NCBI GenBank assembly: GCA_964228555.1
Contig: CAXQZU010000022.1
Coordinates: 15,695-79,694 of the forward strand
Origin: Planctomycetota bacterium
GTDB taxonomy: Bacteria > Planctomycetota > PLA2 > JAEUHO01
Reading direction: 5' to 3'
DNA length: 64,000 nt
How positions within the stretch are numbered: position 1 is the first letter of the stretch; every line of letters starts with the position of its first letter. Shown one piece after another: positions 30,563 to 61,000 of the stretch. The translations under genes and the position numbers were made by a program. The notes beneath the pieces were generated by a model that saw nothing but the letters and a program-made list of their open reading frames with translations, searched no databases and was not told the DNA's origin.

Positions 30563-30565
30563 GGG

Positions 30566-40301: not shown

Positions 40302-40353
40302 GGGGAAGTGCTCCGGAACGTGATGCGAGAGGGGTGGGGAAGGGTGGAGACGG

Positions 40354-42813: not shown

Positions 42814-43180
42814 GCCTTGCCGCTCCTTCGTGCCCGGGCCGCCCTCGCCCCGGGCATACGCCCCCCGCCAGCCGGCCAAGGCTGCTCGGAAGGCCTCCGG
42901 ACCCTGGGTCAACCCATTGGGTAAACCGGCACCCTACCCCCACGGAACGACGGGACGCAACGCCCAACCCAGCGCGGCCTTGCGCGTGGCCACGGCCCGG
43001 GCCGGCCCCAGGGCCGGCCTGCGGCCGGCGTGACGAGCCGGCTCGACCCTGGCAGCGAAGTTGACACCTGCTGGTAACGAGGTAGCGCCGCCCTCTCGGG
43101 TCCTTAGTCTCGGCTGCCGTGCTGCCCCTGCCTCCCCGGCCCGCAGGCGGCCTCGGGTCACCGCAGGCCGCGGCGGGCTC

Positions 43181-45232
43181 CTAGGCGCGGGGCTTGGGCG
43201 GCTGCTCCTCGTCCATGCCGTAGCGCTCCAGCTTCTTGCGCAGGCCCAGGCGCGAGAGGCCCAGTTCCTCGGCGGCGCGGCTCTTGTTCCACGCGTGCCG
43301 CTGCAGCGTGCCGCGCAGCACGCGGCGCTCGAGGTCCTCGACCAGGCCCTTGAGGCCCTGGTCGGGCAGGGGTGCCCTCGGATCCGGCGGGCGGTAGGCA
43401 AGCAGGCGTGCGCTCAGGTGCTCGGGGCGGATCACGCCGCCACTCTCGAGGGCCAGCAGCCGCTGCACCTCGTTGCGCAGCTCCCGCACGTTGCCGGGCC
43501 AGTCGTAGGCGGCCATCAAGTCCAGCGCGCCGGGCTCGAGGCGCACGGGGCGCGTGGGATCCCCCAGCTCGCGCAGGAACCAGGCCACCAGCGCCGGGAT
43601 GTCCTCCCGCCGGTCGCGCAGCGCCGGCACCTCGATGACCACCCCGGCGAGCCGGTGGTAGAGGTCCTGCCGGAAGCGGCCGTCGGCGATGAGGCTCCCG
43701 AGGTCCACCTGCGTGGCCGCCACCAGCCGCACGTCCACGGGGGTGGCAGCCTTGGCACCCAGCCGCCGCACGGTGCCGCCCTCGAGCACCCGCAGCAGCT
43801 CCTTCTGCAGCTCCGCGGGCAGCTCGCCCACGTCGCGCAGGAACAGCGTGCCCTCGTGGGCCTGCTCGAAGAGGCCGGCGTGGTCCCGCGGCGCGGCGGG
43901 CACCGCCCCCCGCACGGCGCCGCGGAACTCGCTCTCCACGAGGCCCGGCGGCAAGGCGCCGCAGGCCTCCACCACGAAGCGACCGCGACGCTGGGCCCCG
44001 TTGAAGTGGATGGCTCGCGCCAGCAGCTCCTTGCCCGTGCCGGGCTCCCCCACCACCAGCACCGGCACGTCCAGGTCGGTCACCCGGTCCACGACACGCA
44101 GCAGCGTGCGCATGGCCGGGCTGCGTCCCACGATGGCGTCGTAGGCGTACTTGAGCCCCAGCTCGTGAGACTGCTTGGCCAGGTCCTCCCGGGCCTGCCG
44201 CAGGGCCGTGGTGCGCAGGCGCAAGGCCTTGCGCAGGCGGTCGTTGAGGCGCTCGATGCGGCGGGACTGGCGCACCGCCTCGCGCCGGCGCATGCCCATC
44301 TCGCGCCGCTGGCGCGCGTTGCGGATGGCGATGGCCGCCAGCCGCGCGTAGCCCTCGAGGATGCGCACGTGGAAGCCATCGAAGCGCCCGGACTCGTAGG
44401 TGTTGTCCAGGTAGATGGCGCCCAGCACCTGCCCCTCGCCGGGCAGCGGCACGCACACCAGCGAGCGCAGCGAGAGGTTGACGATGCTGGCAGCGCCGTC
44501 GAAGCGCTCGTCGCAGATGGCGTCCTCGCTGAGCACGCTGGCGCCCTCGCGGATCACCTGGGCCGCCACGCTGACGGAGTAGGCGCCGTCGGCATCGACC
44601 AGGTCGCGGTGGTCGCGCAGGCGGGCGCGGCGCACCCGGAAGTGGTCGCCCTCGTTGAGCAGCAGGATGCCCCGGGCCGCCCCGCACAGCTGGATGGCGG
44701 CGTCCAGCACGGCGTCGAGCAGCTCGTCCTCGTCGCTGACGGCCTGCAGCTTCTCGTTGAGCTCCATCAGGTGGCCCAGCGCGCGGATCTCGCGCTGGCG
44801 CTCGGCCAGCGTCACGCTGCCGGTGGCGCCAGCGAGGCCCATGTCGGTGGCGTGCGGGTCGGCTTGCGCCGCCTGCTCCACGAGGCCCGGGACCGCCTTG
44901 ACGGCCGGCTTGGGACGGATGGCCCCGGGCAGGAACACGCGCACCTGCGTCTCGCCCACCTCGATGGCATCGCCCTCGGCAAGGCGTGCGTCCAGCACGG
45001 TGGCGCCGTTGAGCATCGTGCCGTTGCGCGAGCCCAGGTCGGTCACGCGCCAGCCATCGCTGCCCAGGTAGATGCGGCAGTGGCGCCTGGAGAGCGTGCG
45101 ATCCTCGACCGGCACGTCCACGCCGGCATCGCGCCCCACCACGACGGCCTCGGCGCGCAGCTCGAAGACCCTCTGGTCGTGGCCGGGCGACTTCACGAAC
45201 AGGCGCAGCGGGTCGCGTGCCATGCCCACCAC
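43181..45232 (-). CDS. FHA-GAF-AAA+-HTH bacterial enhancer-binding-protein homologue with a degenerate GAFTGA motif
   Basis: N-terminal FHA (GRDAGVDVPVEDRTLSRRHCRIY...LGSRNGTMLNG), central GAF-like region, AAA+ with Walker A GEPGTGKE. The GAFTGA position reads ESEFRGAVRGAVPAAP. C-terminal HTH. GTG at 45232 or ATG at 45223. Confidence 0.88.
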   Translation of the reverse strand: MVGMARDPLRLFVKSPGHDQRVFELRAEAVVVGRDAGVDVPVEDRTLSRRHCRIYLGSDGWRVTDLGSRNGTMLNGATVLDARLAEGDAIEVGETQVRVFLPGAIRPKPAVKAVPGLVEQAAQADPHATDMGLAGATGSVTLAERQREIRALGHLMELNEKLQAVSDEDELLDAVLDAAIQLCGAARGILLLNEGDHFRVRRARLRDHRDLVDADGAYSVSVAAQVIREGASVLSEDAICDERFDGAASIVNLSLRSLVCVPLPGEGQVLGAIYLDNTYESGRFDGFHVRILEGYARLAAIAIRNARQRREMGMRRREAVRQSRRIERLNDRLRKALRLRTTALRQAREDLAKQSHELGLKYAYDAIVGRSPAMRTLLRVVDRVTDLDVPVLVVGEPGTGKELLARAIHFNGAQRRGRFVVEACGALPPGLVESEFRGAVRGAVPAAPRDHAGLFEQAHEGTLFLRDVGELPAELQKELLRVLEGGTVRRLGAKAATPVDVRLVAATQVDLGSLIADGRFRQDLYHRLAGVVIEVPALRDRREDIPALVAWFLRELGDPTRPVRLEPGALDLMAAYDWPGNVRELRNEVQRLLALESGGVIRPEHLSARLLAYRPPDPRAPLPDQGLKGLVEDLERRVLRGTLQRHAWNKSRAAEELGLSRLGLRKKLERYGMDEEQPPKPRA

Positions 45233-45301
45233 GAGGCAACCGTCGTGCCAGAGCGCGGCCCCCCGCGGCCTCCACGCCGCGCCCCGGGCGTCACCGAGGC
45301 G

Positions 45302-46054
45302 CTACGCCAGCCCCAGCGCCTGCGCCGCGGCGGCCAGCGCAGCCTGCTCCACGCGCAGGGCCGTGGCGCCCAGCTGCACCGTGGGGACACCCGCCTCCCG
45401 CGCCCGGGCCACCTCCGCGTCCACGAAGCCCCCCTCCGGCCCCACCAGCAGCCAGGGCAGGTCGGCCCCCGGTGCACGCTGCCCCAGCCAGCCGAGCAGT
45501 CGCGGCGCCTGCGGGTCGGGGTCGAGCAGCACGGCGCCGCAGGGGGGCAGGCCGTCCACCAGGGCCGACAGGTCGCGCACCGGCTCCACGCGCAGCATGC
45601 GTGCGCAGCCGTTGCCCTTGGCCGCCTCGCGCGCCACGCGCTCCCAGCGCGCGGCACGACGCGCCGGCAGGTCCTCGCGGCCCGCCGGCGTGCGTGCACA
45701 GCGCAACGGCACCCAGCGCTCCACGCCCAGCCAGGCCAGCCCTTCCACGAGGTCGTCGGCCCGCGAGGGCTCGGGGATGGAGGACGCCACCACCAGCGCC
45801 CGGGCCGGTCGCCGGTCGGGTGCCTCCGCCAGCACCTCGAGGCAGGCGGCGCGCGCGTCGGCCGTGCGCAGCCGCGCCCGGCGCGTGAGGCCGGTGCTGT
45901 CGAACAGCACCACCTCGTCACCCGCGGCCACCCGACGCACGCGCACGAGGTGCGCGGATTCCTCGGCGTCGAGCGTGACCTCGCCCTGCAGCGGCAGGTG
46001 CGCCACCCAGGCGCGCTCCGGGCCGCTGCCGCGGCTGGCGCCCGCGGTGGCCAT
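45302..46054 (-). CDS. rsmE: 16S rRNA (uracil1498-N3)-methyltransferase
   Basis: RsmE motifs (HLVRVRRVAAGDEVVLFD; LLVGPEGGF; GVPTVQLGATALRVEQAAL). ATG overlaps the upstream stop (ATGA). Confidence 0.82.
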   Translation of the reverse strand: MATAGASRGSGPERAWVAHLPLQGEVTLDAEESAHLVRVRRVAAGDEVVLFDSTGLTRRARLRTADARAACLEVLAEAPDRRPARALVVASSIPEPSRADDLVEGLAWLGVERWVPLRCARTPAGREDLPARRAARWERVAREAAKGNGCARMLRVEPVRDLSALVDGLPPCGAVLLDPDPQAPRLLGWLGQRAPGADLPWLLVGPEGGFVDAEVARAREAGVPTVQLGATALRVEQAALAAAAQALGLA

Positions 46055-49000
46055 CAGCGCTCCGCCCCGAGGCGCTCGAGCTCGGCACGCCGGCGACGGG
46101 CCATCTCCAGACGGCCCGGATCCGTGCCCGCGCGGCTGCCTGCGCGCTCGAGGTAGCGCCCGTAGGCCCGCAGGGCGGCCTCGCGGCTCTCCTCGTGCCC
46201 GCCGCGCCGGAACAGGGCCTCGTTGAGCAAGGCGCGGTAGAGGTGCCGCGGCGGGAACTCGTCGGCCCGGTCCAGTGCGTCCAGCGCCTGGAGGCGCTCG
46301 AAGGCGCGATTGGTCACGCTGCGCCGGTCGTCCTCGGAGAGGCCGCCCGCAGCCAGGCGCTCGTAGGCCGCCACGACGAGGAAGAACGATGCCTTGCGGT
46401 GCTCCGGGTCCAGCGCCAGCGCTCGCTCGGCCATGAGGTAGGCGTCCACGGCCTCGCCCACCTCCAGGTGGCCGGCGGCGCGCGCGGCCGACTCCATCGC
46501 ATCGCGTGCGCGCCGCGCCTCTTCCTCGGGAGAGGCGGCGGTGAGCCCCGCCAGCAGGGCCTGCGCCTGCGCTGCGTGCTCGCCCGCGGGGTCGAGGCGC
46601 ACGCTGGACTGCAGGTCGCCAAGCGCCTGTGCACGCAGGGCGTCCACCCGCTGCTGGGCCTCGGCCTGCGCCTTCACGTAGGCCGCGCGGCGCGCCTGCT
46701 GCTGGTCGCCTGGCAGCGCCGCGAAGGCCCGGGCGTCGGCCTCCCAGGGAGGGGGCGGCAGCCGGACCATGCGCACGCCCACGGCGGCGGGCATGCCGCG
46801 CTGGTAGTAGGCACGCGCCAGCAAGCGGTCCACCTCGAGGCTGGCAGGATCCAGCTCCTTGGCCTTCATCAGCACGCCGATGGCCCGCGCGGCGTCCCGC
46901 TGGCCCTTGGCGTCGGGCGTCTCCAGCCACACCCGCCCCTCCAGCAGCCACGCCGCGGGCAAGGCCGGCTCCACCTCCTTGGCTGCGGCCACCGCGCGCA
47001 ATGCCGCCTCGCGGTCGCCGGCCTCCAGCGCCTGCTCGCCCAGCGCGGCATGGAGCCCAGCCAGCTCGCGCGCGGCCGGCCCCCCGGGCAGGTTCTCCAG
47101 CGTGCGCGCTCGCGCAGCCCACGCCAGCGCACCCTTCATGTCGCCCGCGATGCGGCGCGCACCTGCCGCGTCCATCGCCGTACGGGCGTCCCGCGGGTCC
47201 AGCTCCAGCGCGCCCTGCAGCGCCGCCAGTGCCTCCTCGACCAGCACGCGCTCGCGCAGCACCAGGTACTGGTTGAGGTACACGGCCGCCTGGCCGCGCA
47301 GCACCGAGGGCTGCCCGGGGAAGCGCTCGCGCAGCGTGTTGAGGCGCCGCAGGGCCTCCACCCAGCGCTGGGCGCGCATCTCGGCCTCGGCCGCGACGAG
47401 GCCTGCCTCCAGCACGCCGGGGTGCGCGTCGGCCAGCGCCACCACGCGCGCCGAGGCAGCAGCCAGCGCGGCGTCCGCCTCCTGCGCAGCACGCGTGTCG
47501 TCCAGCACCTTGCCGGCGGCCTCCCACGCGGCGTGAGCCGCCTCGTCCGCGCCCGCTGCCAGCGGCACGGCCCGCAGGGCCGTGGCCTCGGCCACGCGCT
47601 CGGGGCCGGGACGCCAGCCGGCCGCGATGGCCTGCCGCGCTGCGCACGCACGCACCTGCACCTGCGCCTCGCGCAGCGCCGGCAACGGGTCGTCGGGGCG
47701 CCGGCGCGCCACGAAGGCATAGTCGCGCGCCGCCCCCTCCATGTCGGCGGCGCGCTCGCGCGCGCTGCCACGCAGCATCAGGGCGGCGTCCAGCACCTCG
47801 GGCGCGCCCTGCTCCTGCGGTCGTGCGGCCACCACGGCGGCCAGTTCCTCCTCGGCCCCGGGGTCATCCCCCACCACCACGCGAGCCGCCGCCAGCAGCA
47901 CGCCCACCGCCGGCGCGCGAGAGGGGCCGGGTGCGTCGAGGCGCCGGGCGACCTCGGCGAGCAAGGCGCGCTCCGTGTCCAGCGAGGCCATGCCCAGGTC
48001 CAGCCGCGACGCGCCCCCCGCCACGGCCTCGGCCACGAGCCGCGCAGCGCCCTCGCGCAACGCGCCGTCGCCGTCGCGGCGTGCCAGCCACGCGGCCTCG
48101 AGCAGCGCCGAGCGCGCCACCAGCGATCGCACCCACGCGGCCCCGGCGTCGCGCTCCAGCGCGCGCTGGTAGCGCGTGCGTGCCTCCAGCCACTTGCCCT
48201 GCTCGAAGAGCACGTCGCCGGCCAGCAGCCAGCCCTCCGCGTGCTCGGCGCCCGCCTGCACCGACTGCTCGGCGCGCTCCAGCGCCCGGCCCAGCAGCTC
48301 GCGGCTGCGCGTGCGGTCACGGCGTGCCTGCTCCAGCAGGCGCTGGCCGTCCTCGCGATAGAGGTCGGCGACGAGGCGGGCCGCCCGGGGGAAGCCCGGG
48401 TGCTCGCGCCGCAGCCGCTCCAGCTCGCGCAACGCAGCCTCGGCCGGGCCTGCCACGAGGAAGTGCTGCGCACGCGCCAGCAGCAGTTCCGGGGCAGCGC
48501 CATGGCGCGACTCGAGGTCCCGGTAGAGGCCCACCGCCTCCTGCGTGCGGCCGGCCATGGCAAGCAGCTTGGCTTCCTGCAGCCCCGCATCCAGCCACGC
48601 CGGCTGCAGGCGCCTCGCCCCCTGCACGCACTGCAGGGCCTCCTCCACGCCCTTGCCCTCCGACTGGGCCGCCTGGCGCGCCAGCAACGTCCCGAGGTTG
48701 TAGAGCGCGGAGGCGTTCTGCGCGTCGAGGTTGGCCGCGCGACGGTAGGCCTCCAGTGCACCGGCCGGCTGCTCGCGGCCCTCCAGCGCCTGGCCGCGGA
48801 ACACCTCGGCCTGCGACTCCAGCCGCCGGGCGTCGTCGCGCGCGAGGCCGCTGCCCGCCGCCTCGCGCGCGGCACTGCCTGCGGCACCGGCGGCCTCCAG
48901 CAGGTCGTCGAGCCGGCCCTGCGTGAGGTGCGCGCCGCAGGCCACCAGGTGAGCCTGGACCCGTACGCGCGCCGAGGACACCCGCGGGCGGCGCTGCGAC

Positions 49001-50355
49001 CACGCCAGCGCCTCGCTGGCGCTGGCCAGCGCCAAGGCCTGCTCCTTGCGCTCCGCGGCGGCCTGCGCACGCTGCACCCAGGCCAGCGCACTGCCCGGCT
49101 GCTTCTCGAGCGTGTCAGCCCACACGGCCTCCGAGGAGGCGAACACCCCGGTACGCAGCAGGCCGCCCACGGCCAGCACGCCCACCACGGCCGCCAGCGC
49201 CGGCCCCCGCGCACGCCCCAGCCGGCCGAGCAGCCACGCCAGCGCCAGGTAGGCGCCCACCGCGCCCACCAGCAGGTAGCGCTCCGCCATCAGCGTGGTC
49301 GTGCGCGGCCAGAGGTTGTTGACGGGCGCAAGCCCCAGTCCCCAGAAGCCCAGCGCGAGCACGGCCAGCGCCCAGCCACGCCTGAGGGCCACGAGGAAGG
49401 CGGCCGCCAGCACCACCGCGAGGCCCGCGCCCAGCCACGCGCTGGCCGCCTGCCAGGTGCCGGCGGGGTCGATGTCGTGGTCCAGCGCCAGGTGCACGGG
49501 CGCGAGCAACGTGGCCACGTAGCGGGCGTGCACGCCGGCCATCGCCGCAGCCAGCGAGGCGGACGACACGCCGTGGTCCACCGCCCCCGGACCCGCCTGC
49601 GCTCCGATGAGGGCGTCCATGGCGATGCCGCCGCAGGCCACCAGCAGGCTGGGCAGCAGGCGCGCCAGCGCCCCCCGGGGCCCGCCACGGCGGCGCTCCA
49701 CCCACTCGTCGAGCACGAGCAGCCCCGCCCAGGTCCAGGTGGTGCCCTTGCACAGGCCCGCCAGCGCCAGCAGCAGGGGCGCCAGCAACGGCACGGCATC
49801 GCGCGAGCGCGCGCGCCGGTAGGCAAGGTGCGCCAGCACGGCCAGCAGCAACGAGAGGACATCCTTGCGTCCGCTGAGCCACGCGACGCTCTCGACATGG
49901 ACGGGATGCACGGCCAGCAGCAGGCCTGCGCCCAGCGCGAGCCACGCCGAGCGCGTGAGCGCCAGCAGCAGCCACGCCAGCAGCCCGCAGGCCGCCGCGA
50001 ACAGCAGCACGTTGACCACGTGCCCGAGGCCGGCCCCGTCCTCGTCCAGCAGCAGGTCCAGCTTGAGGCTCAGGAAGTAGACGGGCTTGTAGGCGTAGTA
50101 GGTGGTCGACGACAGGATCTGCGCCACGCTGCGCTCACGCGCCAGCGACACGACCTGCGGGTCGTCGTAGTTGAGCAGCGCATGCGAGGCCACCGAAGGC
50201 TGCAGGCCAGGCACGTAGCCCAGGTGCACCACCAGCGCGACCAACGCCACGGCCACGCAACCACGCAGCGCGCCCAGCGACTCCACCCAGCCGCCCGCAA
50301 GCCCGGGGGCGGGCGGCGCAGGGCGTTGCTCGGCGGCGGGACCAGGCGTGCTCAT
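46054..50355 (-). CDS. TMTC/PMT-like GT-C glycosyltransferase-fold polytopic membrane protein with a long C-terminal TPR array
   Basis: N-terminal multi-TM domain with the HPxHVESVAW(L/I)SxRKDVL signature (AVHPVHVESVAWLSGRKDVLSLLLAVLAHL). About 1000 aa of TPR repeats follow. ATG at 50355 overlaps the asnB-like stop. Confidence 0.8.
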   Translation of the reverse strand: MSTPGPAAEQRPAPPAPGLAGGWVESLGALRGCVAVALVALVVHLGYVPGLQPSVASHALLNYDDPQVVSLARERSVAQILSSTTYYAYKPVYFLSLKLDLLLDEDGAGLGHVVNVLLFAAACGLLAWLLLALTRSAWLALGAGLLLAVHPVHVESVAWLSGRKDVLSLLLAVLAHLAYRRARSRDAVPLLAPLLLALAGLCKGTTWTWAGLLVLDEWVERRRGGPRGALARLLPSLLVACGGIAMDALIGAQAGPGAVDHGVSSASLAAAMAGVHARYVATLLAPVHLALDHDIDPAGTWQAASAWLGAGLAVVLAAAFLVALRRGWALAVLALGFWGLGLAPVNNLWPRTTTLMAERYLLVGAVGAYLALAWLLGRLGRARGPALAAVVGVLAVGGLLRTGVFASSEAVWADTLEKQPGSALAWVQRAQAAAERKEQALALASASEALAWSQRRPRVSSARVRVQAHLVACGAHLTQGRLDDLLEAAGAAGSAAREAAGSGLARDDARRLESQAEVFRGQALEGREQPAGALEAYRRAANLDAQNASALYNLGTLLARQAAQSEGKGVEEALQCVQGARRLQPAWLDAGLQEAKLLAMAGRTQEAVGLYRDLESRHGAAPELLLARAQHFLVAGPAEAALRELERLRREHPGFPRAARLVADLYREDGQRLLEQARRDRTRSRELLGRALERAEQSVQAGAEHAEGWLLAGDVLFEQGKWLEARTRYQRALERDAGAAWVRSLVARSALLEAAWLARRDGDGALREGAARLVAEAVAGGASRLDLGMASLDTERALLAEVARRLDAPGPSRAPAVGVLLAAARVVVGDDPGAEEELAAVVAARPQEQGAPEVLDAALMLRGSARERAADMEGAARDYAFVARRRPDDPLPALREAQVQVRACAARQAIAAGWRPGPERVAEATALRAVPLAAGADEAAHAAWEAAGKVLDDTRAAQEADAALAAASARVVALADAHPGVLEAGLVAAEAEMRAQRWVEALRRLNTLRERFPGQPSVLRGQAAVYLNQYLVLRERVLVEEALAALQGALELDPRDARTAMDAAGARRIAGDMKGALAWAARARTLENLPGGPAARELAGLHAALGEQALEAGDREAALRAVAAAKEVEPALPAAWLLEGRVWLETPDAKGQRDAARAIGVLMKAKELDPASLEVDRLLARAYYQRGMPAAVGVRMVRLPPPPWEADARAFAALPGDQQQARRAAYVKAQAEAQQRVDALRAQALGDLQSSVRLDPAGEHAAQAQALLAGLTAASPEEEARRARDAMESAARAAGHLEVGEAVDAYLMAERALALDPEHRKASFFLVVAAYERLAAGGLSEDDRRSVTNRAFERLQALDALDRADEFPPRHLYRALLNEALFRRGGHEESREAALRAYGRYLERAGSRAGTDPGRLEMARRRRAELERLGAER

Positions 50356-52238
50356 GCGTCGCTCCGGGGCAGGGCCGCGCCCCTCGGGGGCAGCGCGTGC
50401 GCGTCGCCATCGAGGTAGAGCCGGGCCCACGTCTCGAGCACGACGCACGCGAACAGCCCACGATCATGGACCGGGCGCTGCTCGTCCAGCCGTGCCCGGC
50501 AGGCCGCCACGTCCCACCAGCCGCGCGCGGCGAAGCGCTCGTCGCCGAACAGCTGCTCCAGCCGTTCACGCCCCACGCCGCGCGCAGCCCGCTCGAAGGG
50601 CGTCGGGAAGCCTCGCTTGGCGCGGGCCGTGCGCACGCCTTCCGGGATGCGGCCGCGCAGGAGGGTGCGCAAGGCGCGCTTGCCCTCGCCATCGGGGCCC
50701 ACCACCTCCTCCTCCGGCAGCGCCAGCGCAGCGCCGGGCAGGCGGCCGAGGCAGAAGACGGGCCTCGCCTCCAGCCCGTGGGCTCCGGCCAGGCGGTCCT
50801 CCACCTGCAGCAGGGCCGCGAGCGTGCCCTCCACCTCCGCGCGCAGGGCCAGCGCCAGGCCCTGCTCGCCGGCAGGGCCCGCGCAAGCCAGCTCGGGCTC
50901 ACCCAGCGCTGCGCGGAAGGCCGGCGCAAGCAGGGGTGCCACGTCGCCGCTCCGGTCGTGCAGGGCCTGCACGCGCGCCGCGACGGTGGGCAGGCCCGCA
51001 ACGCGTGCCCCGAGGGCCTCGTAGCCCGCGGTCCAAGGCCCCGCACGGCCCAGGGCCAGCGCCACGCGTGCGTAGCCCCCCAGGAACTCGTCCCCGCCCG
51101 TGCCGGTGAGCAGCACGCGTCCACGCCCGCGCACGCGCGCCATCAAGCGCCACAGCGCGAGCGAGCCGGGACCGCCCAGCGGCAGCTCCAGCGCGCGCAC
51201 CACGGCCGGGAGGTCCTCCAGCAGGCCTGCGTCGTCGAGGTCCGCCACCTCGTGGCGCACGCCCGCCTGCGCCGCCACCTCCGCGGCCTCGCGCGACTCA
51301 TCCAGCGCGCCGCCCCACGGTGCGAAACGGCCCGTGAGGGCGTGCAGGTCGCTGCGGCCCGCGGCAGCCGCCACGGCCGCGCTGTCCAGGCCGCCCGAGA
51401 GCAGCAGCGTGACGCGCCCCGGGGCCTGCACGGCCTCGCGCGCAGTGGAGGCCAGCGCCGCAGCCAGCTCGCGCCTCGCGCGCGCAGCCTCGTGGCCCGG
51501 CAGGCGCACCACGAGCAGCGGGTCGGGCCCAGCCGGCACGGGCGCCTGCGGGCCCAGCGGGCCCAGTTCCTGGAGGTGGCGCGCGGGCACGCTGCGCACG
51601 CCTTGCCAGGGCAGGCGAGGGCCGGGCCGGTGCAGGTGCACGAGCGAGGCGAGGCCGCGCAGGTCGAGGCGGGCGGGCGCCACGCGCAACAGGGGCTCCA
51701 GCTCGGAGGCCCACCACGTGCCCAGGCCCTCGGGGTCCTCGCGCGTGTAGAGCGGCTTGATGCCGAAGCGATCGCGCAGCAGCCACGCCTTGCCCGCCGC
51801 GAGGTCGGCCACGCACAGCGCCCCCATGCCGCCCAGGACGGCCTCGCAGAGCGCACGGCCGCAGGGGCCCTCCCAGCCCTCGCCCCCCTCCAGCGCGGCC
51901 GAGGCCGCGCACAGCAGCAACGCCGTGTCGCCTTCCGCGGACGGGGGCGGCTCGACGCCGCGCCCGGACAGGGCGTCTCGCAGGGCCCGCCGCGCCGAGG
52001 CCAGCACCTCGCCATTCCAGGCCAGCGCCAGCCGGCCCGAGGGGGACACCCGCGGCTGCTGGGCCTCCAGAGGGCCCTGGATGGCAAGGCGCACGGCCGC
52101 GAGCACGACACGCGGCCCCTGCACCACGCCGCTGCCGTCCGGGCCGCGGTGCGCCAGCCGGGCAAGCAGGTCGGCGATGCGCGCGCTGCCAGCCGGCGGC
52201 CCGCCCGCGCGGGCGACAAACCCGACGAAGCCGCACAC
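50352..52238 (-). CDS. asparagine synthetase (glutamine-hydrolysing) family amidotransferase
   Basis: N-terminal Cys nucleophile (MCGFVGFV), Ntn glutaminase domain, and PP-loop SGGLDSAAVAA in the synthetase domain. Confidence 0.85.
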   Translation of the reverse strand: MCGFVGFVARAGGPPAGSARIADLLARLAHRGPDGSGVVQGPRVVLAAVRLAIQGPLEAQQPRVSPSGRLALAWNGEVLASARRALRDALSGRGVEPPPSAEGDTALLLCAASAALEGGEGWEGPCGRALCEAVLGGMGALCVADLAAGKAWLLRDRFGIKPLYTREDPEGLGTWWASELEPLLRVAPARLDLRGLASLVHLHRPGPRLPWQGVRSVPARHLQELGPLGPQAPVPAGPDPLLVVRLPGHEAARARRELAAALASTAREAVQAPGRVTLLLSGGLDSAAVAAAAGRSDLHALTGRFAPWGGALDESREAAEVAAQAGVRHEVADLDDAGLLEDLPAVVRALELPLGGPGSLALWRLMARVRGRGRVLLTGTGGDEFLGGYARVALALGRAGPWTAGYEALGARVAGLPTVAARVQALHDRSGDVAPLLAPAFRAALGEPELACAGPAGEQGLALALRAEVEGTLAALLQVEDRLAGAHGLEARPVFCLGRLPGAALALPEEEVVGPDGEGKRALRTLLRGRIPEGVRTARAKRGFPTPFERAARGVGRERLEQLFGDERFAARGWWDVAACRARLDEQRPVHDRGLFACVVLETWARLYLDGDAHALPPRGAALPRSDA

Positions 52239-52240
52239 GG

Positions 52241-52954
52241 CTAGGCCCTCGCCGCGACCGCAGGCTCGAGCACCGCGGTGTAGCCCAGCGCCACCGGATC
52301 GAAGGCGAGCGAGCGCACCACCCCGTGCGCTGCCAGCACGGCCCGCAAGCGTGCCGCGTCGAAGCGCTGCACGTGGCCCGGCGCCGGCTCCAGCGAGAGT
52401 CCCCGCACCAGCCGGCCCAGCCCGGTCAGGCGCAACAGCTTCTTGGCACGCAGTATGGGCCCGTCGGCGGGCACGTACACCACGACACAGCCGCCCGGGG
52501 CCAGCAGGGGCAGCAGCCCGGCCAGGGCCGCGCCCGGATCCTCCAGGTGCTCCAGCAGCGCGCTGAGCACGATCACGTCGGCGCCCTCGGGGCCCAGGTG
52601 CGCACGCAGGCCCTGCGGCGCCAGCGCGTCGCCCGGCGCGAGGACCACGCCGGGTCGACCCACGAGGGGGCTCTGCGCGAGCATCGCGGGATCGAGGTCC
52701 GAGAGCACCAGCCGCTCGACGCCCTCCGCGTAGGCCTCGGCGATCCAGCCATCCTCGCAGCCGAGGTCCAGCACGGTGCGCGGCCGGCGCGCGCGCACCT
52801 GCCGGGCGACCAGCTCACGCCGCCGCCGCTCGATGGCACGCACGATCCACCCCCCGCGCGCCCGCATCTCGGCCATCGAGTGCGTCTGGTTGAGGGCCTG
52901 GTTGCGCGCGACGCGCTCGGCCGGCAACGGCAGGGACGGGGCAGGCAGGGGCAT
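52241..52954 (-). CDS. class I SAM-dependent methyltransferase
   Basis: Motif I (VLDLGCEDGW) and downstream motifs (VIVLSALLEHLEDP). ATG verified at 52954. Confidence 0.78.
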   Translation of the reverse strand: MPLPAPSLPLPAERVARNQALNQTHSMAEMRARGGWIVRAIERRRRELVARQVRARRPRTVLDLGCEDGWIAEAYAEGVERLVLSDLDPAMLAQSPLVGRPGVVLAPGDALAPQGLRAHLGPEGADVIVLSALLEHLEDPGAALAGLLPLLAPGGCVVVYVPADGPILRAKKLLRLTGLGRLVRGLSLEPAPGHVQRFDAARLRAVLAAHGVVRSLAFDPVALGYTAVLEPAVAARA

Positions 52955-52991
52955 CGTGCCCCCAGCCTCGCGCCCCCCGTTCACGGCGCCG

Positions 52992-53750
52992 TCACCCGCG
53001 CGGGGAGGGCCTTGCACCCCCCTCGGCGAGGCCCTGCCGGGGTGGTCGCAGGCGCAGCACCAGGAGCCGGCCCAGCGCGGCGGCGTGCCCCAGCAGGGCT
53101 CGGCCCACGCGCATCTTGCTGCGGCCCTCGGTGCGCGGCCGCAGCGCGGCGGGCACTTCTTCCACGCGCAGGCCGGCCAGCAGGGCACGCCCCAGCATCT
53201 CGGCGGCAGCCGGGAAGCCGCGCGCAGCAGGCAGGCAGCAGGACCGCGCCCGCGGCCCGTAGGCCCGGAAGGCGCAGGTGAAGGTGCGCACCCCGCGGGC
53301 GCGGCGACCCAGCACGGTGCGGTAGCAGGCAGCCGCCGCGCGCGTCAGTGCCCGGCGCCAGGCCGGCACGCCCTCCATGCTCCCTGCGGCGGCCAGCGGC
53401 GAGGCCGTGGCCACGTCCGCGCCGGCGCACACGGCCTCCACCAGCCGCTGGACGTGCTCGGGCGCGTAGCCGCGGTCGGCGTCATAGACGACGACCACCT
53501 CGCAGCGTGCGGCCTGCAGGCCAGAGCGCATCGCGGCCCCCACGCCCCGGTTGCGTGGGTGGGTGACGATGCGCACGCGCGCATCCGCCCGTGCCAGCGC
53601 GTCCAGCAGGCGCGCCGTGCCGTCGGTGGAACCGTCGTCCACGCCCACGATCTCGCGTGCCGGCAACGCGGCCAGCACCGGCTGCAGGCCCGGGAGCGCC
53701 TCTTCCTCCTGGTAGCAGGGCACCACCAGCGTGTAGTCGTGCGCGGCCAC
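52992..53750 (-). CDS. GT2-family polyprenyl-phosphate sugar synthase-like glycosyltransferase (DPM1/ArnC-like)
   Basis: YTLVVPCYQEE ... GVDDGSTDGT ... VVVYDADRGYAPE (DxD context) typical of GT-A family 2. GTG start; coordinates follow the ORF track. Confidence 0.85.
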   Translation of the reverse strand: MAAHDYTLVVPCYQEEEALPGLQPVLAALPAREIVGVDDGSTDGTARLLDALARADARVRIVTHPRNRGVGAAMRSGLQAARCEVVVVYDADRGYAPEHVQRLVEAVCAGADVATASPLAAAGSMEGVPAWRRALTRAAAACYRTVLGRRARGVRTFTCAFRAYGPRARSCCLPAARGFPAAAEMLGRALLAGLRVEEVPAALRPRTEGRSKMRVGRALLGHAAALGRLLVLRLRPPRQGLAEGGARPSPRG

Positions 53751-53799
53751 CCGCGCACCCTACACCGGGCGCGGCCGCCTCCGCGGCAGCCTGCGCGTG

Positions 53800-54675
53800 C
53801 TAGCGCATGCCCAGCGCCACCTGCACGGCCTGCAGGTCGTCCCACACGGGGCGCTTGGCCTCGGGATTGCGCAGCAGGTAGGCCGGGTGGAAGGTCGGCA
53901 TCACGCGCCAGCCCTCCGGCGTGCGCATCCAGCTGCCCCGCAGGCTGGTGATGCCCCGCTCCGTGCCCAGCAAGGCGCGCGTGGCGTGATTGCCCAGCGC
54001 GAGGATGGGCGGCGGCCCCAGCAAGGCCAGCTGCTCCTTCATCCAGGGCGTGCAGGCTGCCACCTCCTGGGGCATGGGCGGACGGTTGGCTGGCGGGCGG
54101 CACTTGAGGACGTTGAGGATGAACACGTCGTGGTCGCGCGAGAGCCCGATGGCGGACAGCATGCGCGTGAGCAGCTGGCCGGCCGGCCCCACGAAAGGCA
54201 CCCCCTGTGCGTCCTCTTCCTCCCCCGGCGCCTCGCCCACGACCACCAGGCGGGGGGTGCGGCTGCCCGCCCCGAACACGGCCTGGGTCCGCGAGGCGCA
54301 CAGGCCGCAGCGCTGGCACCCGGCCACCTCGGCCTCCAGCGGACCCCAACGGGCAGGGTCCGGCGGACCGGCGGGGACGGCCCCGGGCGACACGACGACG
54401 GGCCCGGGGAGGCCGCTCTCCGGACGCCGCCCCGTGGCAGGCAGCGCGGGCCCTAAGCCACGCGGGCCCGTTCGCGGGCCGCTGCCGCCCCCTTGCCCCG
54501 GCCCACGGGCCTGCTGCGTGGCACGGCCCTGTCCCATGGCGCCGTGGGCCCCCGGCGGCACGGCCACCGTCGGCTGCGGCTCCTCGGCCGGCAAGTAGCG
54601 GGCTCCGGCGCCCCGTACCCACTCGACGTAGAAGAGGGCCTCGTCGAGCAGCGGATCAGGTGCGCCCGGCATCAC
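53800..54675 (-). CDS. family-4 (Fe-S, UdgA-type) uracil-DNA glycosylase with a Gly/Pro-rich N-terminal extension
   Basis: GCQRCGLC ... GEAPGEEEDAQGVPFVGPAG ... ILNVLKCRPPANR ... HPAYLLRN motifs. The true start may lie downstream of 54675. Confidence 0.8.
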   Translation of the reverse strand: MMPGAPDPLLDEALFYVEWVRGAGARYLPAEEPQPTVAVPPGAHGAMGQGRATQQARGPGQGGGSGPRTGPRGLGPALPATGRRPESGLPGPVVVSPGAVPAGPPDPARWGPLEAEVAGCQRCGLCASRTQAVFGAGSRTPRLVVVGEAPGEEEDAQGVPFVGPAGQLLTRMLSAIGLSRDHDVFILNVLKCRPPANRPPMPQEVAACTPWMKEQLALLGPPPILALGNHATRALLGTERGITSLRGSWMRTPEGWRVMPTFHPAYLLRNPEAKRPVWDDLQAVQVALGMR

Positions 54676-54733: not shown

Positions 54734-54754
54734 ATGCGAACAAGATGCGAACAA
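54734..54754. promoter_or_regulatory. tandem ATGCGAACAA direct repeat containing GAAC-N7-GAAC (reverse complement GTTCGCATCTTGTTCGC); LexA-box-like, in the udg/secretin divergent region
   Basis: GCATGCGAACAAGATGCGAACAAATGG at 54732-54758, in a locally AT-richer intergenic stretch. Shares GTTCGCA-N4-GTTCG with the site at 18292-18306. About 60 nt upstream of the udg start on the minus strand. Confidence 0.5.
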
Positions 54755-54940
54755 ATGGCTGCGGGCCAGCAGCAAAAAGCCGGGATCGGGTGACGCGAGC
54801 GTGACACGCAGGCCGGACTCTTCCCTCGTCCAGGGTCCATGGGCAGGCCTGCATCGCGGCGCGCGCGCGCCGTCCCGACGCACGAGGGTTCGTCGGGGGC
54901 ATGCAGGCGTGCTCGTGTTCCCGCATGGAGCACACCGCGG

Positions 54941-57840: not shown

Positions 57841-58023
57841 TGGCCGCTCGCATGGTGCGCAGCGCGGCCGAGGGCTGGCGCCGAGGTCGCACGGGCGGGC
57901 CGCGTTGCCCGCCGCTCCCCCCATCCGTAGAATGCGCCCGCCTTGGCCCGCACGCGCGAGCCAGCGCGGGACGGTGCAGCCCCCGGGGCCCGCACCGCCC
58001 TCCCCTGCCCCTGGAGCCCATCC

Positions 58024-61000
58024 ATGGTGTTCACGCGCCGCTTCCTGCGCCTCTCCGGCGTCCTGCTGCTGCCCGCCCTGCTGCTGGCGGGCGCACCGCG
58101 CGCCGAGGCCGGTGCGGACGACTTCGAGTTCGGCCAGAAGCTGGCCCAGGCGCGCTTCTTCAAGCTGGCCCGCCGCGTCTACGAGGGCATGCTCACGGCG
58201 CAGGGCAGCAGCGACACGCAGAAGGACCTCGCGCGCTACGGGCTCGCCACGCTCGGCCACCAGGAGGCGCTCAGCGCCGGCGCCCGCAGCGAGGTGCCCT
58301 TCGCCGAGGTGATCGCGCTCTACAACACGGCCGCCGAGCAGGTGGACGCCTTCGCCCAGAAGAACCCCAACCACCCCAAGGCACGCGACGCGCGGCTGCT
58401 GAGCGGCAAGATCCGCCTCGACGTCGTCAACTGGTGCCGCGACCTGCTGGACCTGCCTGAGATGCTGGCGTCGCGCAAGGCCTCGCCCGGCGAGGTGGCC
58501 TCGGCCGCGCGCAAGGCCGTCGACGACGCCACCTCGCACTTCGAGGCCCTCAAGGGCTCGGGCGGCGACCTGGCCGAGCTGGCGGGGTACTACTGGACCA
58601 CGGCCCAGTACTACAAGGCCCTGACGCTGGACGGCGGCAGCGCAGCCCAGATGGCCGCCTTGCGCGACGCCGAGACCAAGCTGGACGACTACATCAGCGA
58701 GAACGACGGCAAGCTGCTGGCCGTGTTCGCGCAGGACATGCTGGGCCTGACGCTGGCCGAGCGCGCGAAGCACACGCCCGGCGACGAGGAGCGCGCGCAG
58801 CTCTACAGCAAGGCGCTGACCTGGTTCCAGACCTGCATCGACCAGGAGTACATGGACGCGGACACGCTCACGGTCATCACCAATGGCTACCAGCACTACG
58901 GCAAGGCCTGCCTCGAGGCGGGCCGCATCGGCACGCGCAACTTCTGGCGCGAGGGCGTCAACGTGCTGGGCGAGATGCTGGCCAAGGTGCCGACCTCGGG
59001 CAAGACCGGCAACGGCATCCGCGCCATGCTGGTGCTGGGCGACCTGCAGAAGGCGCTGGGCGACTCCTCGGCCGCGCTGAACACGTACAAGGACGCATCG
59101 GACCGGGCCAGCCAGATCGACCAGCGCGGCCTGGCAGCAGAGGCCGACAAGCGCGTGCGCGAGGCCACGCGCGGCGGCGCCGTGCAGATCACCGACATCA
59201 ACATCGCGCGCAAGGTGGCGCAGAGCAACCTCGACGAGAAGCGCTGGGAAGAGGCGATCTCGGGCTTCCAGGACGTGATCGCGCTGGCGCCCAGCACGCC
59301 GCAGGCCTTCGTCGAGATGGTGTGGCCGTCGTGGGAGAAGATTGCCACGGCCTACCGCGAGCTGGGCGATCCGCTGTCGGCCGCGATGGCCTACGAGGCC
59401 ATCCACGAGGCATGGCTGGCCGGCCTCATCTCGCACAAGAAGGGTGACGAGAACGACAACAACATGCGCCGCGCCGGCGGCAATCGCAAGGCGGGCATCC
59501 GCCTGCTGGACGAGCTGGCCACGAAGACCGGATCCAAGGTGTTCCGCGAGGCCATGAAGCGCGCCGACGCAGGCTTTGCCACGGACTTCCCCGACCACCC
59601 GGACAGCAAGGACAGCGTGCTGCGCGTGGCGCTGGACAAGTACAAGGCGGCGCGCGACGCCAAGCGGGCGAAGGCGGCCGGCTGGCGCGCACAGTTCGAG
59701 GAGGCGCGCAAGCTGTTCGAGGCCGAGGCCCGCAACGCCAAGAGCCAGAACCAGGACGCGGCGGCCTCCTACGTGATCCAGATCGACTACCAGATGGTCT
59801 ACGACCCCGGCACGGTGGCGCCCCCGGCCGAGGGCCGCAAGGCGGCCGAGCGCGGGCTGGCCTTCTCCAGCGAGATGCTTGCCTTCTGGGCCTCGGAGGC
59901 CGGCCAGCAGAAGATCAAGGACTTCCCCACGCTGGCCGGCAAGCGCACCTCGGCCGTGAAGGACGTGCGCCTGCGCCGTGGTGACCTGCTCAAGGCGCTG
60001 GACCGCTGGGACGAGGTGATCTCCGAGATGACCGCGATGCGCTCCGAGGTGGGCGACGGCGAGGAGGGGGACGACGCGCAGGCCCTCGTGGTGGAGGCCC
60101 ACGTCGAGAAGGGCAGCACGGCTGCCGCCGACGAGGCGCTCAAGGTGCTGCTCAAGCGCGGCAAGCACCCGGCCATCCCGGCGCTGGTGGGCAAGGTGGC
60201 TGGCACCTTCGACGCCCAGTTCCGCGAGCTGACCAAGCAGTTCAACACGAAGAACGAGGAGCTCAACGGCACCCGCGAGGACCGCAGCACGGGCATCAAC
60301 GCGCGCATGCGCACGACCGAGGCCCGCTACAACGACCTGCTGGCGCAGAAGGTGAGCCGCCAGCAGGTGGTGGACGTGCACCGCCGCGACATCGAGGCGT
60401 GGCGCAAGGACCCCGAGACCCGCAAGGGCCTGACCGAGAAGACGGTGAAGGAGCTCGAGGAGAAGACCATCCCCGAGCTCGACGCCCTGGTCGCGAGCCT
60501 GACGAGCGAGATCGGCTCGCTGGACACGCAGATGCAGGCCCTGCGCACGCGTTCGGAAGCCCTGCAGGGCGAGATCCGCGACATCACCCTCGCGCAGTAC
60601 GCGCCGCTCAAGGAGGCGGTCAAGCGCTTCGACCTGGGCCTGCAGAGCGCGCTGGACGCCGGCGTGACGCCCAAGGCCGCCGAGCTGGGCAACATCGCCG
60701 CCCGCTGGTACGCCGCGGCCCGCAACGCCAAGGGCGAGGAGGGAGACTGGCAGAAGGCCCGCCTGCGCTACGAGCAGTTCATGGACCTGGCCGAGGTGAA
60801 GGCGCTGCCTGACACCGACGCGAGCAAGCGGGGCGCGCAGGCCAAGCTGGGGCGCATCTACTCGCACTTCTCCGAGGTGGAGAAGGATGCCGGCCGCCGC
60901 GCCGAGACCGTGCGCAAGGCCATCCTGCTGCTGGAGCAGACGCTGGCAGCCCGGCCGGAGAACAACGAGATCCTGCTGGGCTTGCTGGGCGGGCGCTACG

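Follow-up and report, generated by a model that had tools for sequence, protein, structure and literature searches.

The metazoan proteins TMTC1-4 (CAZy family GT105) are ER protein O-mannosyltransferases for cadherins, built from an N-terminal GT-C domain of 11 transmembrane helices and, behind it, a TPR array that faces away from the cytoplasm, the polyprenyl-phosphate sugar being provided by a DPM1-type GT2. Their TPR repeats number roughly 8-12. In the actinobacterial Ppm1/Pmt pathway (GT2 and GT39), Pmt has no TPR domain, and the pathway includes neither an amidotransferase nor a methyltransferase and is tied to general secretion, not to a pilus-like cluster. Further combinations of a GT2 with a GT-C enzyme (ArnC/ArnT, GtrB/GtrC, RgtE/RgtA-D, PpgS/Rv3779) act on lipid A, O-antigen or arabinogalactan; their lipid- or glycan-directed GT-Cs are devoid of TPR arrays, their GT2s carry transmembrane helices, and a flippase (ArnE/F, GtrA) is usually encoded in these systems. 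AsnB-type enzymes are known to produce uronamide sugars: WbpS, WbqG and PGN_1234 (eps_aminotran_1), glutamine amidotransferases of class II that contain an Asn-synthase domain and are found in the context of O-antigen clusters, convert uronic-acid sugars to uronamides (PMC7468200). From the PVC superphylum, the type IV pilus-like cluster Amuc_1098-Amuc_1102 of Akkermansia is known, of which the Amuc_1098 and Amuc_1101 families have been described (PMC4960237, PMC5332112).

Gene block and its large membrane protein

The window, i.e., the whole stretch of 64,000 nt that has been analysed, derives from an uncultured planctomycete, and the operon considered here is tightly packed. Its minus strand carries, in this order, udg, a DPMS/ArnC-like GT2, a SAM methyltransferase, an AsnB-type amidotransferase, a 1433-aa membrane protein, rsmE and an FHA-GAF-sigma54 activator. 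All seven genes of the preliminary description have been recovered at their coordinates by GC3 frame analysis, which separates them from the spurious ORFs that a GC content of 75% leads one to expect in large numbers. The AsnB stop and the GT-C start overlap (ATGA), as do the GT-C stop and the rsmE start (TGATG), the gap between methyltransferase and AsnB amounts to 2 nt, and no terminator-like sites have been found within the block. The GAAC-N7-GAAC site pointed out earlier is present at 54738-54752 and belongs to a 10-nt direct repeat (ATGCGAACAA, twice).

The giant enzyme of this block (46054-50355, minus strand, including the stop codon) resembles the animal TMTC O-mannosyltransferases. 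The gene has a high GC3 in frame, and the length of its product is confirmed by an identical 1433-aa protein in a public collection (P0048). A GT-C glycosyltransferase domain with 11 transmembrane helices (residues 1-405, 49141-50355) is followed by a periplasmic TPR-like solenoid of ~24 helix pairs (residues 408-1433, 46057-49134). In the AF2 model (pLDDT 90.4), ~48 paired helices run along the entire, all-alpha 993-aa tail, which Foldseek matches to the long solenoids of Ski3, Ctr9, IFT139, OGT and SPY at E ~1e-12; Pfam sees TPRs only at ~residues 510-750. No Pfam or NCBIfam model, including PMT, PMT_2 and TMTC_DUF1736, matched the transmembrane domain itself, and its assignment as GT-C is a prediction from modelled structure and transitive sequence homology, PMT_2 being matched by 8 and TMTC_DUF1736 by 3 of 23 relatives. 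Regarding the TMTC/PMT-like GT-C enzyme with TPR array that had been proposed, the GT-C fold, the periplasmic solenoid and the TMTC-like architecture have thus been borne out, whereas a match to the PMT_2/TMTC models has not. By fold score, GT-C enzymes that modify proteins are not separated from those that modify lipids or glycans.

The likeness to TMTC1-4 extends to individual motifs. The DD motif (D64-D65, 50161-50166), located in the first periplasmic loop, nearly invariant in the family and predicted to provide the catalytic base and metal site, is the counterpart of TMTC motif M1 (PMC7801869). The HPxHVESVAW signature noted previously has been confirmed as HPVHVESVAW at residues 150-159 (49879-49908), with E155 and V157 invariant in A1, and corresponds to LLFAVHPIHT in human TMTC3. 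Shared motifs comprise DD and Y-(K/R)-P in EL1, (F/L)AVHP(I/V)H, RxD in EL2, a lysine in EL3 and (E/D)R-Y before TM10. The predicted topology puts the TPR domain as well as the loop with DD in the periplasm. Unlike TMTC1-4, the protein is bacterial, carries ~24 TPR-like repeats, has no PF08409 match, lacks motif M5 (DW) and the M4 Glu of KE(T/Q)xxT, and is encoded in one operon with its GT2 and with genes for an amidotransferase and a methyltransferase. DD, K and (E/D)R are strictly kept in ~85 family representatives, the only motif-less member being P0056 from locus L162, and the catalytic and donor-binding motifs are retained in 10/10 GT2-bearing loci.

Partner enzymes and passengers

The GT2 (252 aa, 52992-53750, minus strand; PF00535, Glycos_transf_2, E=1e-24) is a predicted polyprenyl-phosphate sugar synthase with DDGSTD and DAD motifs. 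It contains no transmembrane helix and is soluble, in contrast to the GT2s of the ArnC/ArnT, GtrB/GtrC, RgtE/RgtA-D and PpgS/Rv3779 systems, and it reached no cut-off of the NCBIfam equivalog models. Its closest PDB relatives are all polyprenyl-phosphate glycosyltransferases, namely Pyrococcus DPMS (PfDPMS, 5mlz; residues 7-226), then ArnC and GtrB, in agreement with the DPM1/ArnC-like character originally ascribed to it. As in the TMTC system, a DPM1-type GT2 is thereby predicted to supply a polyprenyl-phosphate sugar. Orthologues occur in L001-L004, L163, L165, L166 and L171, and in the genes directly next to 72 distant TPR-GT-C genes, GT2 is the sole enriched enzyme family (9/126 neighbours).

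The tightest partner of the GT-C gene is, however, AsnB and not GT2. The AsnB-type glutamine-dependent amidotransferase (628 aa, 50352-52238, minus strand; PF00733, Asn_synthase, E=9e-50, and GATase_6/7) has an intact and conserved Cys2 (MCGF) and SGGLDS PP-loop, and its gene shares 4 nt with the GT-C gene in L001, L162, L163, L166, L168, L169, L172 and the P0051 contig as well as in the window, whereas those of L165 and L170 adjoin without overlapping. Its discrete orthogroup is made up of ~73 clusters at >=44% identity, and its score is far under the cut-off for true Asn synthases (198 vs 267 bits). With WbpS, WbqG and PGN_1234 it has Cys2, the PP-loop and a partial TIGR03108 match in common, but as it attains only 130 bits against the WbpS-type cut-off of 817, it constitutes a separate orthogroup, whose partner is the GT-C/TPR gene instead of an O-antigen cluster.

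The remaining genes are less closely bound to the pair. The class I SAM-dependent methyltransferase (237 aa, cytoplasmic, 52241-52954, minus strand; Methyltransf_23, PF13489, E=1.3e-14, also Methyltransf_11/12/25) is the least conserved module member: orthologues are limited to the window's own subclade, a lipoprotein takes its place in L171, and it is absent from L172. The first gene of the block, udg (53800-54675, minus strand), encodes a family-4 uracil-DNA glycosylase (PF03167, E=1.4e-36; TIGR00758, 187.9 bits, above the cut-off of 125.3), has no counterpart in L172, a distant locus, lies in reverse orientation in L171, and is probably a syntenic passenger. The same probably holds for rsmE (45302-46054, minus strand), an RsmE-family 16S rRNA methyltransferase gene (PF04452 and PUA_4; TIGR00046, 87 bits, above the cut-off of 41) that is missing in L170 and L172; by the TGATG overlap, it is translationally coupled to the GT-C gene, and so is AsnB at the other end of that gene.

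Conservation within a pilus-like cluster

The genes are co-conserved in relatives, the lack of which had been named as an argument against the proposed glycosylation operon. More than 12 Planctomycetota loci retain the module (44-83% identity), even where an IS110 element, an additional methyltransferase or a DHH gene has been inserted upstream of GT2. Its invariant core consists of AsnB and GT-C/TPR: among three subclades with readable flanks, GT2 is present in two and the methyltransferase in one, and in distant subclades the pair persists without udg, rsmE, GT2 and methyltransferase. As AsnB and GT-C are intact in L172 with neither GT2 nor methyltransferase adjacent, GT2 need not be encoded locally. 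In L162, GT2 and methyltransferase have been deleted, the GT-C protein is devoid of DD, RKD, K203 and ER, and Cys2 of AsnB has been replaced by Ser; this joint loss, a natural knock-out in one lineage only, suggests a single functional unit.

Throughout, the AsnB-GT-C/TPR pair lies within a secretin-EBP-FHA-PilM cluster. The sigma54 activator gene (43181-45232, minus strand), encoding an FHA-GAF-AAA+ enhancer-binding protein with HTH_8 (Pfam FHA, GAF, Sigma54_activat, HTH_8), follows the GT-C gene in every subclade, with or without rsmE in between. Immediately upstream of its start codon, a sigma54-type -24/-12 promoter (TGGCACGACGGTTGC, 45236-45250, minus strand) has been located in the 70-nt rsmE-EBP gap, so that the activator has its own promoter; this is conserved, a GG-N10-GC element with (T/A)TTGC being found at the same position in L003, L005, L162, L163, L165, L166 and L168. 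Downstream of the activator, a double-FHA protein (859 aa) and a PilM-like protein (715 aa) are encoded (38346-42933, minus strand; Pfam FHA x2, PilM_2), with orthologues after the activator in L003, L165, L166, L168, L171 and L172. A divergently transcribed secretin with N-terminal TPRs (54839-57760, plus strand; PF00263, E=1e-25) adjoins the module, as it does in L001, L003, L162, L163, L165, L166 and L172. Four pseudopilin genes (30566-34180, minus strand) with GF(T/S)xxE prepilin motifs in their translations (N_methyl, PF07963) offer possible acceptors, none of the cluster proteins or candidate acceptors being notably Ser/Thr-rich. A distant homologue (L045) adjoins a prepilin peptidase, AsnB and GT2. 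The link to the pseudopilin block that had been raised in the preliminary description is thus stronger than supposed, since the pair stays in this cluster even in distant subclades.

The closest curated relatives of the secretin and the PilM-like protein are Amuc_1098 and Amuc_1101 of the Akkermansia cluster; these top NCBIfam matches lie far under their cut-offs (110 bits vs 750 and 133 bits vs 650, respectively).

Proposed sugar relay and competing readings

We consider it about an even chance (roughly 50%) that the central four genes act as a single relay, in which a sugar would be built in the cytoplasm and used in the periplasm, most likely on a component or cargo of the filament apparatus, with udg and rsmE as passengers. 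The analysis establishes the identity of the domains, the fold and topology, the retention of motifs, the coupling of genes and their synteny; the sugar, the order of steps, the chemistry of AsnB and methyltransferase, and the acceptor are what we infer here. The soluble, DPMS-like GT2 would take the sugar from a nucleotide-sugar and attach it to polyprenyl phosphate on the inner side of the membrane. The AsnB-type enzyme, using glutamine and ATP, may then convert a carboxylate to an amide on the lipid-linked sugar or its nucleotide precursor, most plausibly a uronic acid to a uronamide as in the case of WbpS and WbqG, and in the window's subclade the SAM methyltransferase would add a methyl group. 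After a flippase encoded elsewhere (no flippase gene has been found in the 64,000-nt window) has carried the lipid-linked sugar across the membrane, the 11-helix GT-C domain would transfer the sugar in the periplasm by means of DD, RKD, K203 and ER359, while the solenoid of ~24 repeats may select the acceptor or dock the enzyme. That udg and rsmE show parts of the block to co-travel without a shared function has been counted against the relay, as have the missing flippase gene, the sub-cut-off scores of GT2 and AsnB, the intact pair of L172 with no GT2 or methyltransferase beside it, the restriction of the L162 losses to one lineage, the lack of Ser/Thr-rich candidate acceptors, the undiscriminating fold scores and the absence of M5 and of the M4 Glu.

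The same lipid-linked-sugar/GT-C chemistry could serve a non-protein acceptor, such as lipid A/LPS core, peptidoglycan or a secretin-exported polysaccharide, with the solenoid as periplasmic scaffold. ArnC/ArnT, RgtE/RgtA-D, GtrB/GtrC and PpgS/Rv3779 act in this mode, and periplasmic TPR scaffolds are known from BcsC, PelB and AlgK; yet ArnT, RgtA-D, GtrC and Rv3779 bear no TPR array, the characterised enzymes with GT-C + TPR architecture are the protein-directed TMTC1-4, and in the window and close relatives the cluster contains pseudopilins, PilM and FHA proteins but no genes for polysaccharide assembly (Wzx/Wzy, ABC transporter or others). Such an acceptor is rated as rather unlikely. Less probable still is a mainly structural protein, a membrane anchor with a periplasm-spanning scaffold touching the TPR-bearing secretin, which could do without glycosyl transfer or have it as a side activity, AsnB playing a non-sugar role. 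L162 indeed retains a full-length transmembrane-TPR protein and an AsnB-like gene after losing the catalytic motifs, GT2 and methyltransferase, the TPR tail alone (~1000 aa) is far longer than a typical family member as a whole (550-680 aa), and TPRs also occur in the secretin and a 1287-aa neighbour. The strict retention of DD, K and (E/D)R by all other representatives, however, argues for selection on catalysis, the active-site residues of GT2 and AsnB are kept as well, and scaffold and catalysis are mutually compatible.

Very little weight falls on a chance syntenic mix without common pathway, in which udg would serve DNA repair, asnB asparagine synthesis, methyltransferase and rsmE RNA modification, and GT2 and GT-C would act independently. 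Although the methyltransferase is generic, and udg and rsmE clearly belong to housekeeping families yet sit within the block or are even coupled to it in translation, AsnB forms a discrete orthogroup under the Asn synthase cut-off, overlaps the GT-C start in the window and most loci and keeps its partner where udg and rsmE are missing. GT-C neighbours are absent from all 80 generic AsnB loci, and the coordinated degeneration in L162 likewise stands against independent genes.

There is support for the lipid-linked-sugar logic of the relay and for its link to the pilus, while mannose as the sugar, a Ser/Thr O-linkage, a protein as acceptor and pilins as substrates are tentative assignments. Relative to the Akkermansia cluster, the planctomycete one has gained FHA proteins, a sigma54 activator, giant pseudopilins and the AsnB-GT-C/TPR pair as extra components. 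Since this pair is fixed in a PVC-type secretin-PilM-FHA-sigma54 cluster, the acceptor would most likely be a pseudopilin, pilin or secreted protein, i.e., a component or cargo of this type IV filament-like apparatus.

The minus-strand gene block and its relatives

The G+C content of the window is ~75%, and long spurious ORFs therefore occur in every frame, so that genes have been picked by third-position GC. The seven minus-strand genes of the preliminary description (43181-54675) have been borne out, as Pfam and NCBIfam agree with the gene list: udg, encoding a family-4 UDG (53800-54675), a GT2 of 252 aa (52992-53750), a class I SAM methyltransferase (MT, 52241-52954), an AsnB-type amidotransferase (50352-52238), the large TPR protein termed GT-C/TPR (46054-50355), RsmE (45302-46054), and an FHA-GAF-sigma54 activator (EBP, 43181-45232), all on the minus strand. 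The start of the large gene is fixed by an identical 1433-aa protein in public assemblies (P0048). MT and AsnB are separated by 2 nt, the AsnB stop overlaps the GT-C start (ATGA), and the GT-C stop overlaps the rsmE start (TGATG). A terminator scan has revealed no terminator-like site within the gene block, its sole match lying in the udg-secretin intergenic region and not exceeding chance, a sigma70 promoter scan has yielded no promoter-like site, and an Rfam scan of the window has given 0 matches.

A genome scan with a 6-sequence alignment has identified MAGs of Planctomycetota as the closest relatives, and the module is present in more than 12 loci. Co-conservation in relatives had been named as a test of the initial reading, and the outcome is favorable: the same order of a divergent secretin, udg, GT2, MT, AsnB, GT-C/TPR, rsmE, EBP, FHA and PilM has been found in the related loci L001-L005, L163/L164 and L165-L168 and in a JGI contig, with module protein identities of 44-83%. 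All rearrangements observed lie upstream of GT2; they comprise an additional MT, an inserted IS110 and, on the other strand, a DHH+MT pair. The co-conservation and the coupled junctions across relatives fit a single, predicted co-transcribed functional module.

The invariant unit is AsnB plus GT-C/TPR within the secretin/EBP/FHA/PilM cluster. This core persists in the long forms of more distant subclades. A 1292-aa GT-C/TPR is overlapped by AsnB in L169, and AsnB is followed by a 975-aa GT-C/TPR and then EBP in L170. The order in L171 is GT2, AsnB, a lipoprotein replacing MT, GT-C/TPR, rsmE, EBP, FHA and PilM, and that in L172 is secretin, HAD hydrolase, AsnB, GT-C/TPR, EBP, FHA and PilM; GT2, MT, udg and rsmE are all absent from L172, where the GT-C motifs are intact. 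Of the three subclades whose flanks are readable, two include GT2 with the pair and one includes MT. The 295-aa predicted lipoprotein of L171 (9117-10004) lies between AsnB and GT-C, with no MT there, and the HAD-type phosphatase of L172 (7434-8249) is located directly upstream of AsnB; as a different gene stands beside AsnB in each, the accessory enzyme varies by lineage.

The AsnB orthogroup is discrete, with ~73 clusters at ≥44% identity and a sharp drop to ~30% for generic AsnB. In a background control, a metagenome scan with an AsnB alignment, saturated by generic AsnB patterns, has given relatives of 23-32% identity only, and none of 80 loci had a GT-C neighbor beside generic AsnB. Exhaustive HMMER searches put the wider TPR-GT-C family at 29,483 representative clusters (E up to 1e-3), a number that shrinks to 19 at E up to 1e-30. 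Among distant TPR-GT-C loci AsnB is nearby in 1 of 76 (L045 only), and the sole enriched enzyme family beside 72 distant TPR-GT-C genes is GT2, accounting for 9 of 126 immediate neighbors.

The large membrane protein and its partner enzymes

For the first 440 residues of the large protein no Pfam, NCBIfam or solved-sequence match has been obtained, a phmmer search of the PDB with the membrane domain has returned noise only, and a profile of the family alignment (A1) run against PDB sequences is dominated by TPR matches and uninformative on the membrane domain. A check with PMT_2/TMTC models, which the preliminary description had proposed, has turned out negative, as the window protein matches neither PMT_2 nor PF08409 (TMTC_DUF1736). 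PMT, PMT_2 and MIR find no match in this protein or its clade, and none of eight clade members matches PF08409 even with E relaxed to 5. Homologues sharing 25-35% identity are membrane-plus-TPR proteins of 550-680 aa, and of 23 tested homologues eight match PMT_2 and three TMTC_DUF1736. By lines of evidence that include transitive homology and motifs, we have identified the N-terminal part as a GT-C glycosyltransferase; the protein fits the GT-C fold superfamily, with a multi-span membrane fold and a conserved GT-C core, and its likeness to PMT (GT39) is at the fold level only. The predicted model contains 11 transmembrane helices, with the C-terminal TPR domain on the EL1 side as in TMTC-type enzymes. 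Arginine clusters (RRARSR, ERRRGGPR, LRRG, GRLGRAR) are found in alternate loops only, which gives a topology of 11 helices in which the N terminus is on the inner side and both the DD loop and the C-terminal domain are periplasmic. The acidic pair D64-D65 (within NYDD) sits in the first extracytoplasmic loop and is retained in 10/10 GT2-bearing loci and in nearly all of ~85 family representatives, one having ED.

Compared with the motifs that Eisenhaber and colleagues have defined for human TMTC1-4 (PMC7801869), M1 (DD), M3 (RxD) and M7 (ERxxY) are represented in the window protein by NYDD, GRKD and AERY, and ER358-359 corresponds to the (E/D)R-Y preceding TM10 in TMTC-type enzymes. The HPVHVESVAW signature picked out from the sequence at the outset is indeed present (residues 150-159) and forms part of the AVHPxH stretch of TMTC. 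By contrast, only the Y-K-P part (YAYKP) of M2 (SHKSYRP; PMC7801869) is kept; in M4 (KE(T/Q)xxT) the lysine (K203, in EL3) is invariant, whereas the metal-binding Glu is changed to Gly (CKGT), and M5 (DW in EL4) is absent, EL4 reading LDHD or LDYA. The large protein is TMTC-like in its architecture and most motifs, and no demonstrable member of PF08409. The supposed fusion of the GT-C part to ~1000 aa of TPRs is correct, because the C-terminal 993 residues are modeled (pLDDT 90.4) as 48 paired helices whose matches are long TPR solenoids, for instance those of Ski3, Ctr9, IFT139, OGT and SPINDLY; the solenoid spans residues 408-1433.

The GT2 matches PF00535 and has a GT-A fold with DxD. Among solved structures Pyrococcus DPMS is the closest, the alignment covering residues 7-226 with DAD (VYDAD) and the RxxGxSK segment (RTEGRSK), and the top seven solved relatives are DPMS, ArnC and GtrB, all of them polyprenyl-phosphate glycosyltransferases. 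The originally suggested logic of a donor synthase paired with a GT-C transferase holds. Together with the co-conservation and the link to a pilus, this gives the initial reading partial support, O-mannosylation and pilin substrates being its hypothetical parts. The GT2 carries no transmembrane helix, and its best NCBIfam scores (48-57 bits) fall short of the cut-offs (370-529) of the curated equivalogs that would name the sugar. AsnB has the N-terminal Cys and ATP-pyrophosphatase PP-loop (SGGxDS) of class II glutamine amidotransferases, its Cys2 nucleophile (MCGF) and SGGLDS loop being conserved in orthologues, and it stays below the cut-offs of both asparagine synthase (TIGR01536, 197.8 against 267.1 bits) and the WbpS-type sugar amidotransferase (TIGR03108, 130.1 against 816.9 bits). 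AsnB-type enzymes of the WbpS family make uronamides from uronic acids (PMC7468200). By family matches, MT is a generic methyltransferase. No signal peptide or transmembrane helix has been found in the sequences of GT2, AsnB and MT, and any tailoring would thus precede flipping, with either the nucleotide sugar or the lipid-linked sugar as the substrate.

The neighboring filament-like cluster and putative regulatory sites

The link to a pilus that had been raised initially is retained, as the AsnB-GT-C/TPR pair lies within the secretin/EBP/FHA/PilM cluster. For the secretin, with N-terminal TPRs (54839-57760, plus strand), the best curated match is the Akkermansia family Amuc_1098, and for the 715-aa PilM-like protein (38346-40493, minus strand) it is Amuc_1101, also of Akkermansia; both matches are far below cut-off, and no assembly ATPase has been seen within the window. 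From these matches the cluster looks like a divergent type IV pilus-like system of the PVC type. Four pseudopilin genes at 24471-34180 (minus strand) all encode GF(T/S)xxE, two of the products being unusually large (up to 424 aa); the same segment encodes a 1086-aa protein with a GspG-like domain, and the housekeeping gene scpB sits amid the pseudopilin genes. At 57931-61734 (plus strand), a helical, Lys/Glu-rich signal-peptide protein of ~1240 aa without a Pfam match is encoded, which adjoins the secretin in L001 and L003 too and is followed by two more signal-peptide proteins of unassigned function (61764-63125 and from ~63413). As a hint of O-glycosylation substrates, the Ser/Thr content of the cluster proteins has been inspected, and none stood out. 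The cyanobacterial pilin-modifying Ogt has been rejected as a precedent, because it is a GT41 enzyme and no GT-C.

The distant homologue locus L045 (520-13009), from a MAG of Proteobacteria, carries a 631-aa TPR-GT-C between AsnB and a prepilin peptidase (A24), and upstream a second TM-TPR protein, GT2, two GT4s and a UDP-GlcNAc 2-epimerase. L045 is an independent link of TPR-GT-C, AsnB and pilin processing.

A sigma54-type promoter, TGGCACGACGGTTGC, is located at 45236-45250 (minus strand), 12 nt upstream of the EBP ATG, and a GG-N10-GC element with (T/A)TTGC occurs at the same position in L003, L005, L162, L163, L165, L166 and L168. This placement just upstream of EBP, kept in relatives, suggests autoregulation of EBP and a transcription separate from that of the glycosylation genes. 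A second exact match to TGGCAC-N6-TTGC falls within the AsnB coding sequence (50926-50941, minus strand) and is probably due to chance, as at least two matches have occurred in 6/100 shuffles. Another sigma54-like element (GG-N10-GC), TGGGTTGGGCGTTGC at 42957-42971 (minus strand), between EBP and the gene of an 859-aa double-FHA protein, is a candidate target promoter of EBP. Between udg and the divergent secretin lies a TGTCAC-N6-CGTCACCCG direct repeat (54787-54806, minus strand), of which L001, L003 and L163 have near-identical versions in the equivalent position. The repeat probably binds a regulator, and its conservation exceeds that of the GAAC-N7-GAAC site noted in the preliminary description. 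The latter exists within an exact 10-nt direct repeat of ATGCGAACAA with 11 bp spacing (54734-54754, plus strand), and a similar GCGAACAACAGGCGAAC has been found in L163 only, where it lies on the other strand with respect to the operon; owing to this partial conservation, it has been given no regulatory weight.

A lipid-linked-sugar relay as the best-supported model

The analysis has shown which domains the genes encode, the fold and topology of the large protein, the conservation of motifs, and the coupling and synteny of the genes; the model with the best support is a lipid-linked-sugar relay. GT2 would charge polyprenyl phosphate, AsnB, and in the subclade of the window also MT, would tailor the sugar in the cytoplasm, a flippase would carry the lipid-linked sugar across the membrane, and the GT-C domain would pass it in the periplasm to an acceptor chosen by the TPR solenoid. 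This acceptor would most likely belong to the neighboring filament or secretion machine. We infer here the sugar, the chemistry of AsnB and MT, the order of the steps and the acceptor.

Other readings are less well supported. The acceptor might be other than a protein, following an ArnT- or Rgt-like logic; fold scores do not separate PMT-like from ArnT-like enzymes. The block might be a mere synteny of housekeeping genes, and udg and rsmE do look like passengers; AsnB and GT-C/TPR remain paired in L172, where both are missing. The TPR protein might also be mainly structural.

In the degenerate lineage L162, the GT-C homologue P0056 has lost DD, the YKP lysine, RKD, K203 and ER and retains HPVHVESVA and the TPR tail, being the sole motif-less case among the ~85 representatives. 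The DHH-AsnB interval of L162 measures 219 bp, GT2 and the co-oriented MT are gone, and the AsnB-like protein starts with MSGF in place of MCGF (Cys2 to Ser) and has KRAASVPF in place of KRGFPTPF; the GT-C homologue, the AsnB-like protein and the whole surrounding cluster are still kept (3612-12495). Donor synthase, transferase active site and amidotransferase nucleophile have thus been lost together, as would be expected of a single pathway, although the case is confined to one lineage. L162 represents either a catalytic knock-out that arose naturally or a scaffold put to a new use.

Beyond the relay itself, the protein could be the first bacterial TMTC-type protein glycosyltransferase, its solenoid of ~24 repeats docking on a PVC-type secretin/PilM filament machine whose pilins or cargo are decorated with a sugar amidated (and, in the subclade of the window, methylated) on the lipid carrier, with AsnB obligatory and the AsnB-GT-C pair marking an unrecognized glycosylation branch of type IV filament systems; in this full form we consider the proposal rather unlikely, at roughly one chance in five. 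GT2/GT-C pairs and the TMTC architecture are known already; the novelty lies in a conserved TMTC-like enzyme of bacterial origin that has AsnB as its obligatory partner and is wired into a type IV filament-like cluster.

No experimentally characterized bacterial TPR-GT-C has been found in the searchable literature. The locus provides this family with an unusually complete and testable context, in which candidates for the donor synthase and for two sugar-tailoring enzymes are at hand, the defined neighboring machine narrows the search for the acceptor, and the degenerate lineage L162 is usable as a natural control. Should the acceptor prove to be a protein that is secreted or belongs to the pilus, the range of TMTC-type O-glycosylation would widen from animals to bacteria, and a new accessory function would be gained for the type IV filament-like systems, as yet poorly understood, of the PVC superphylum, which includes Akkermansia.
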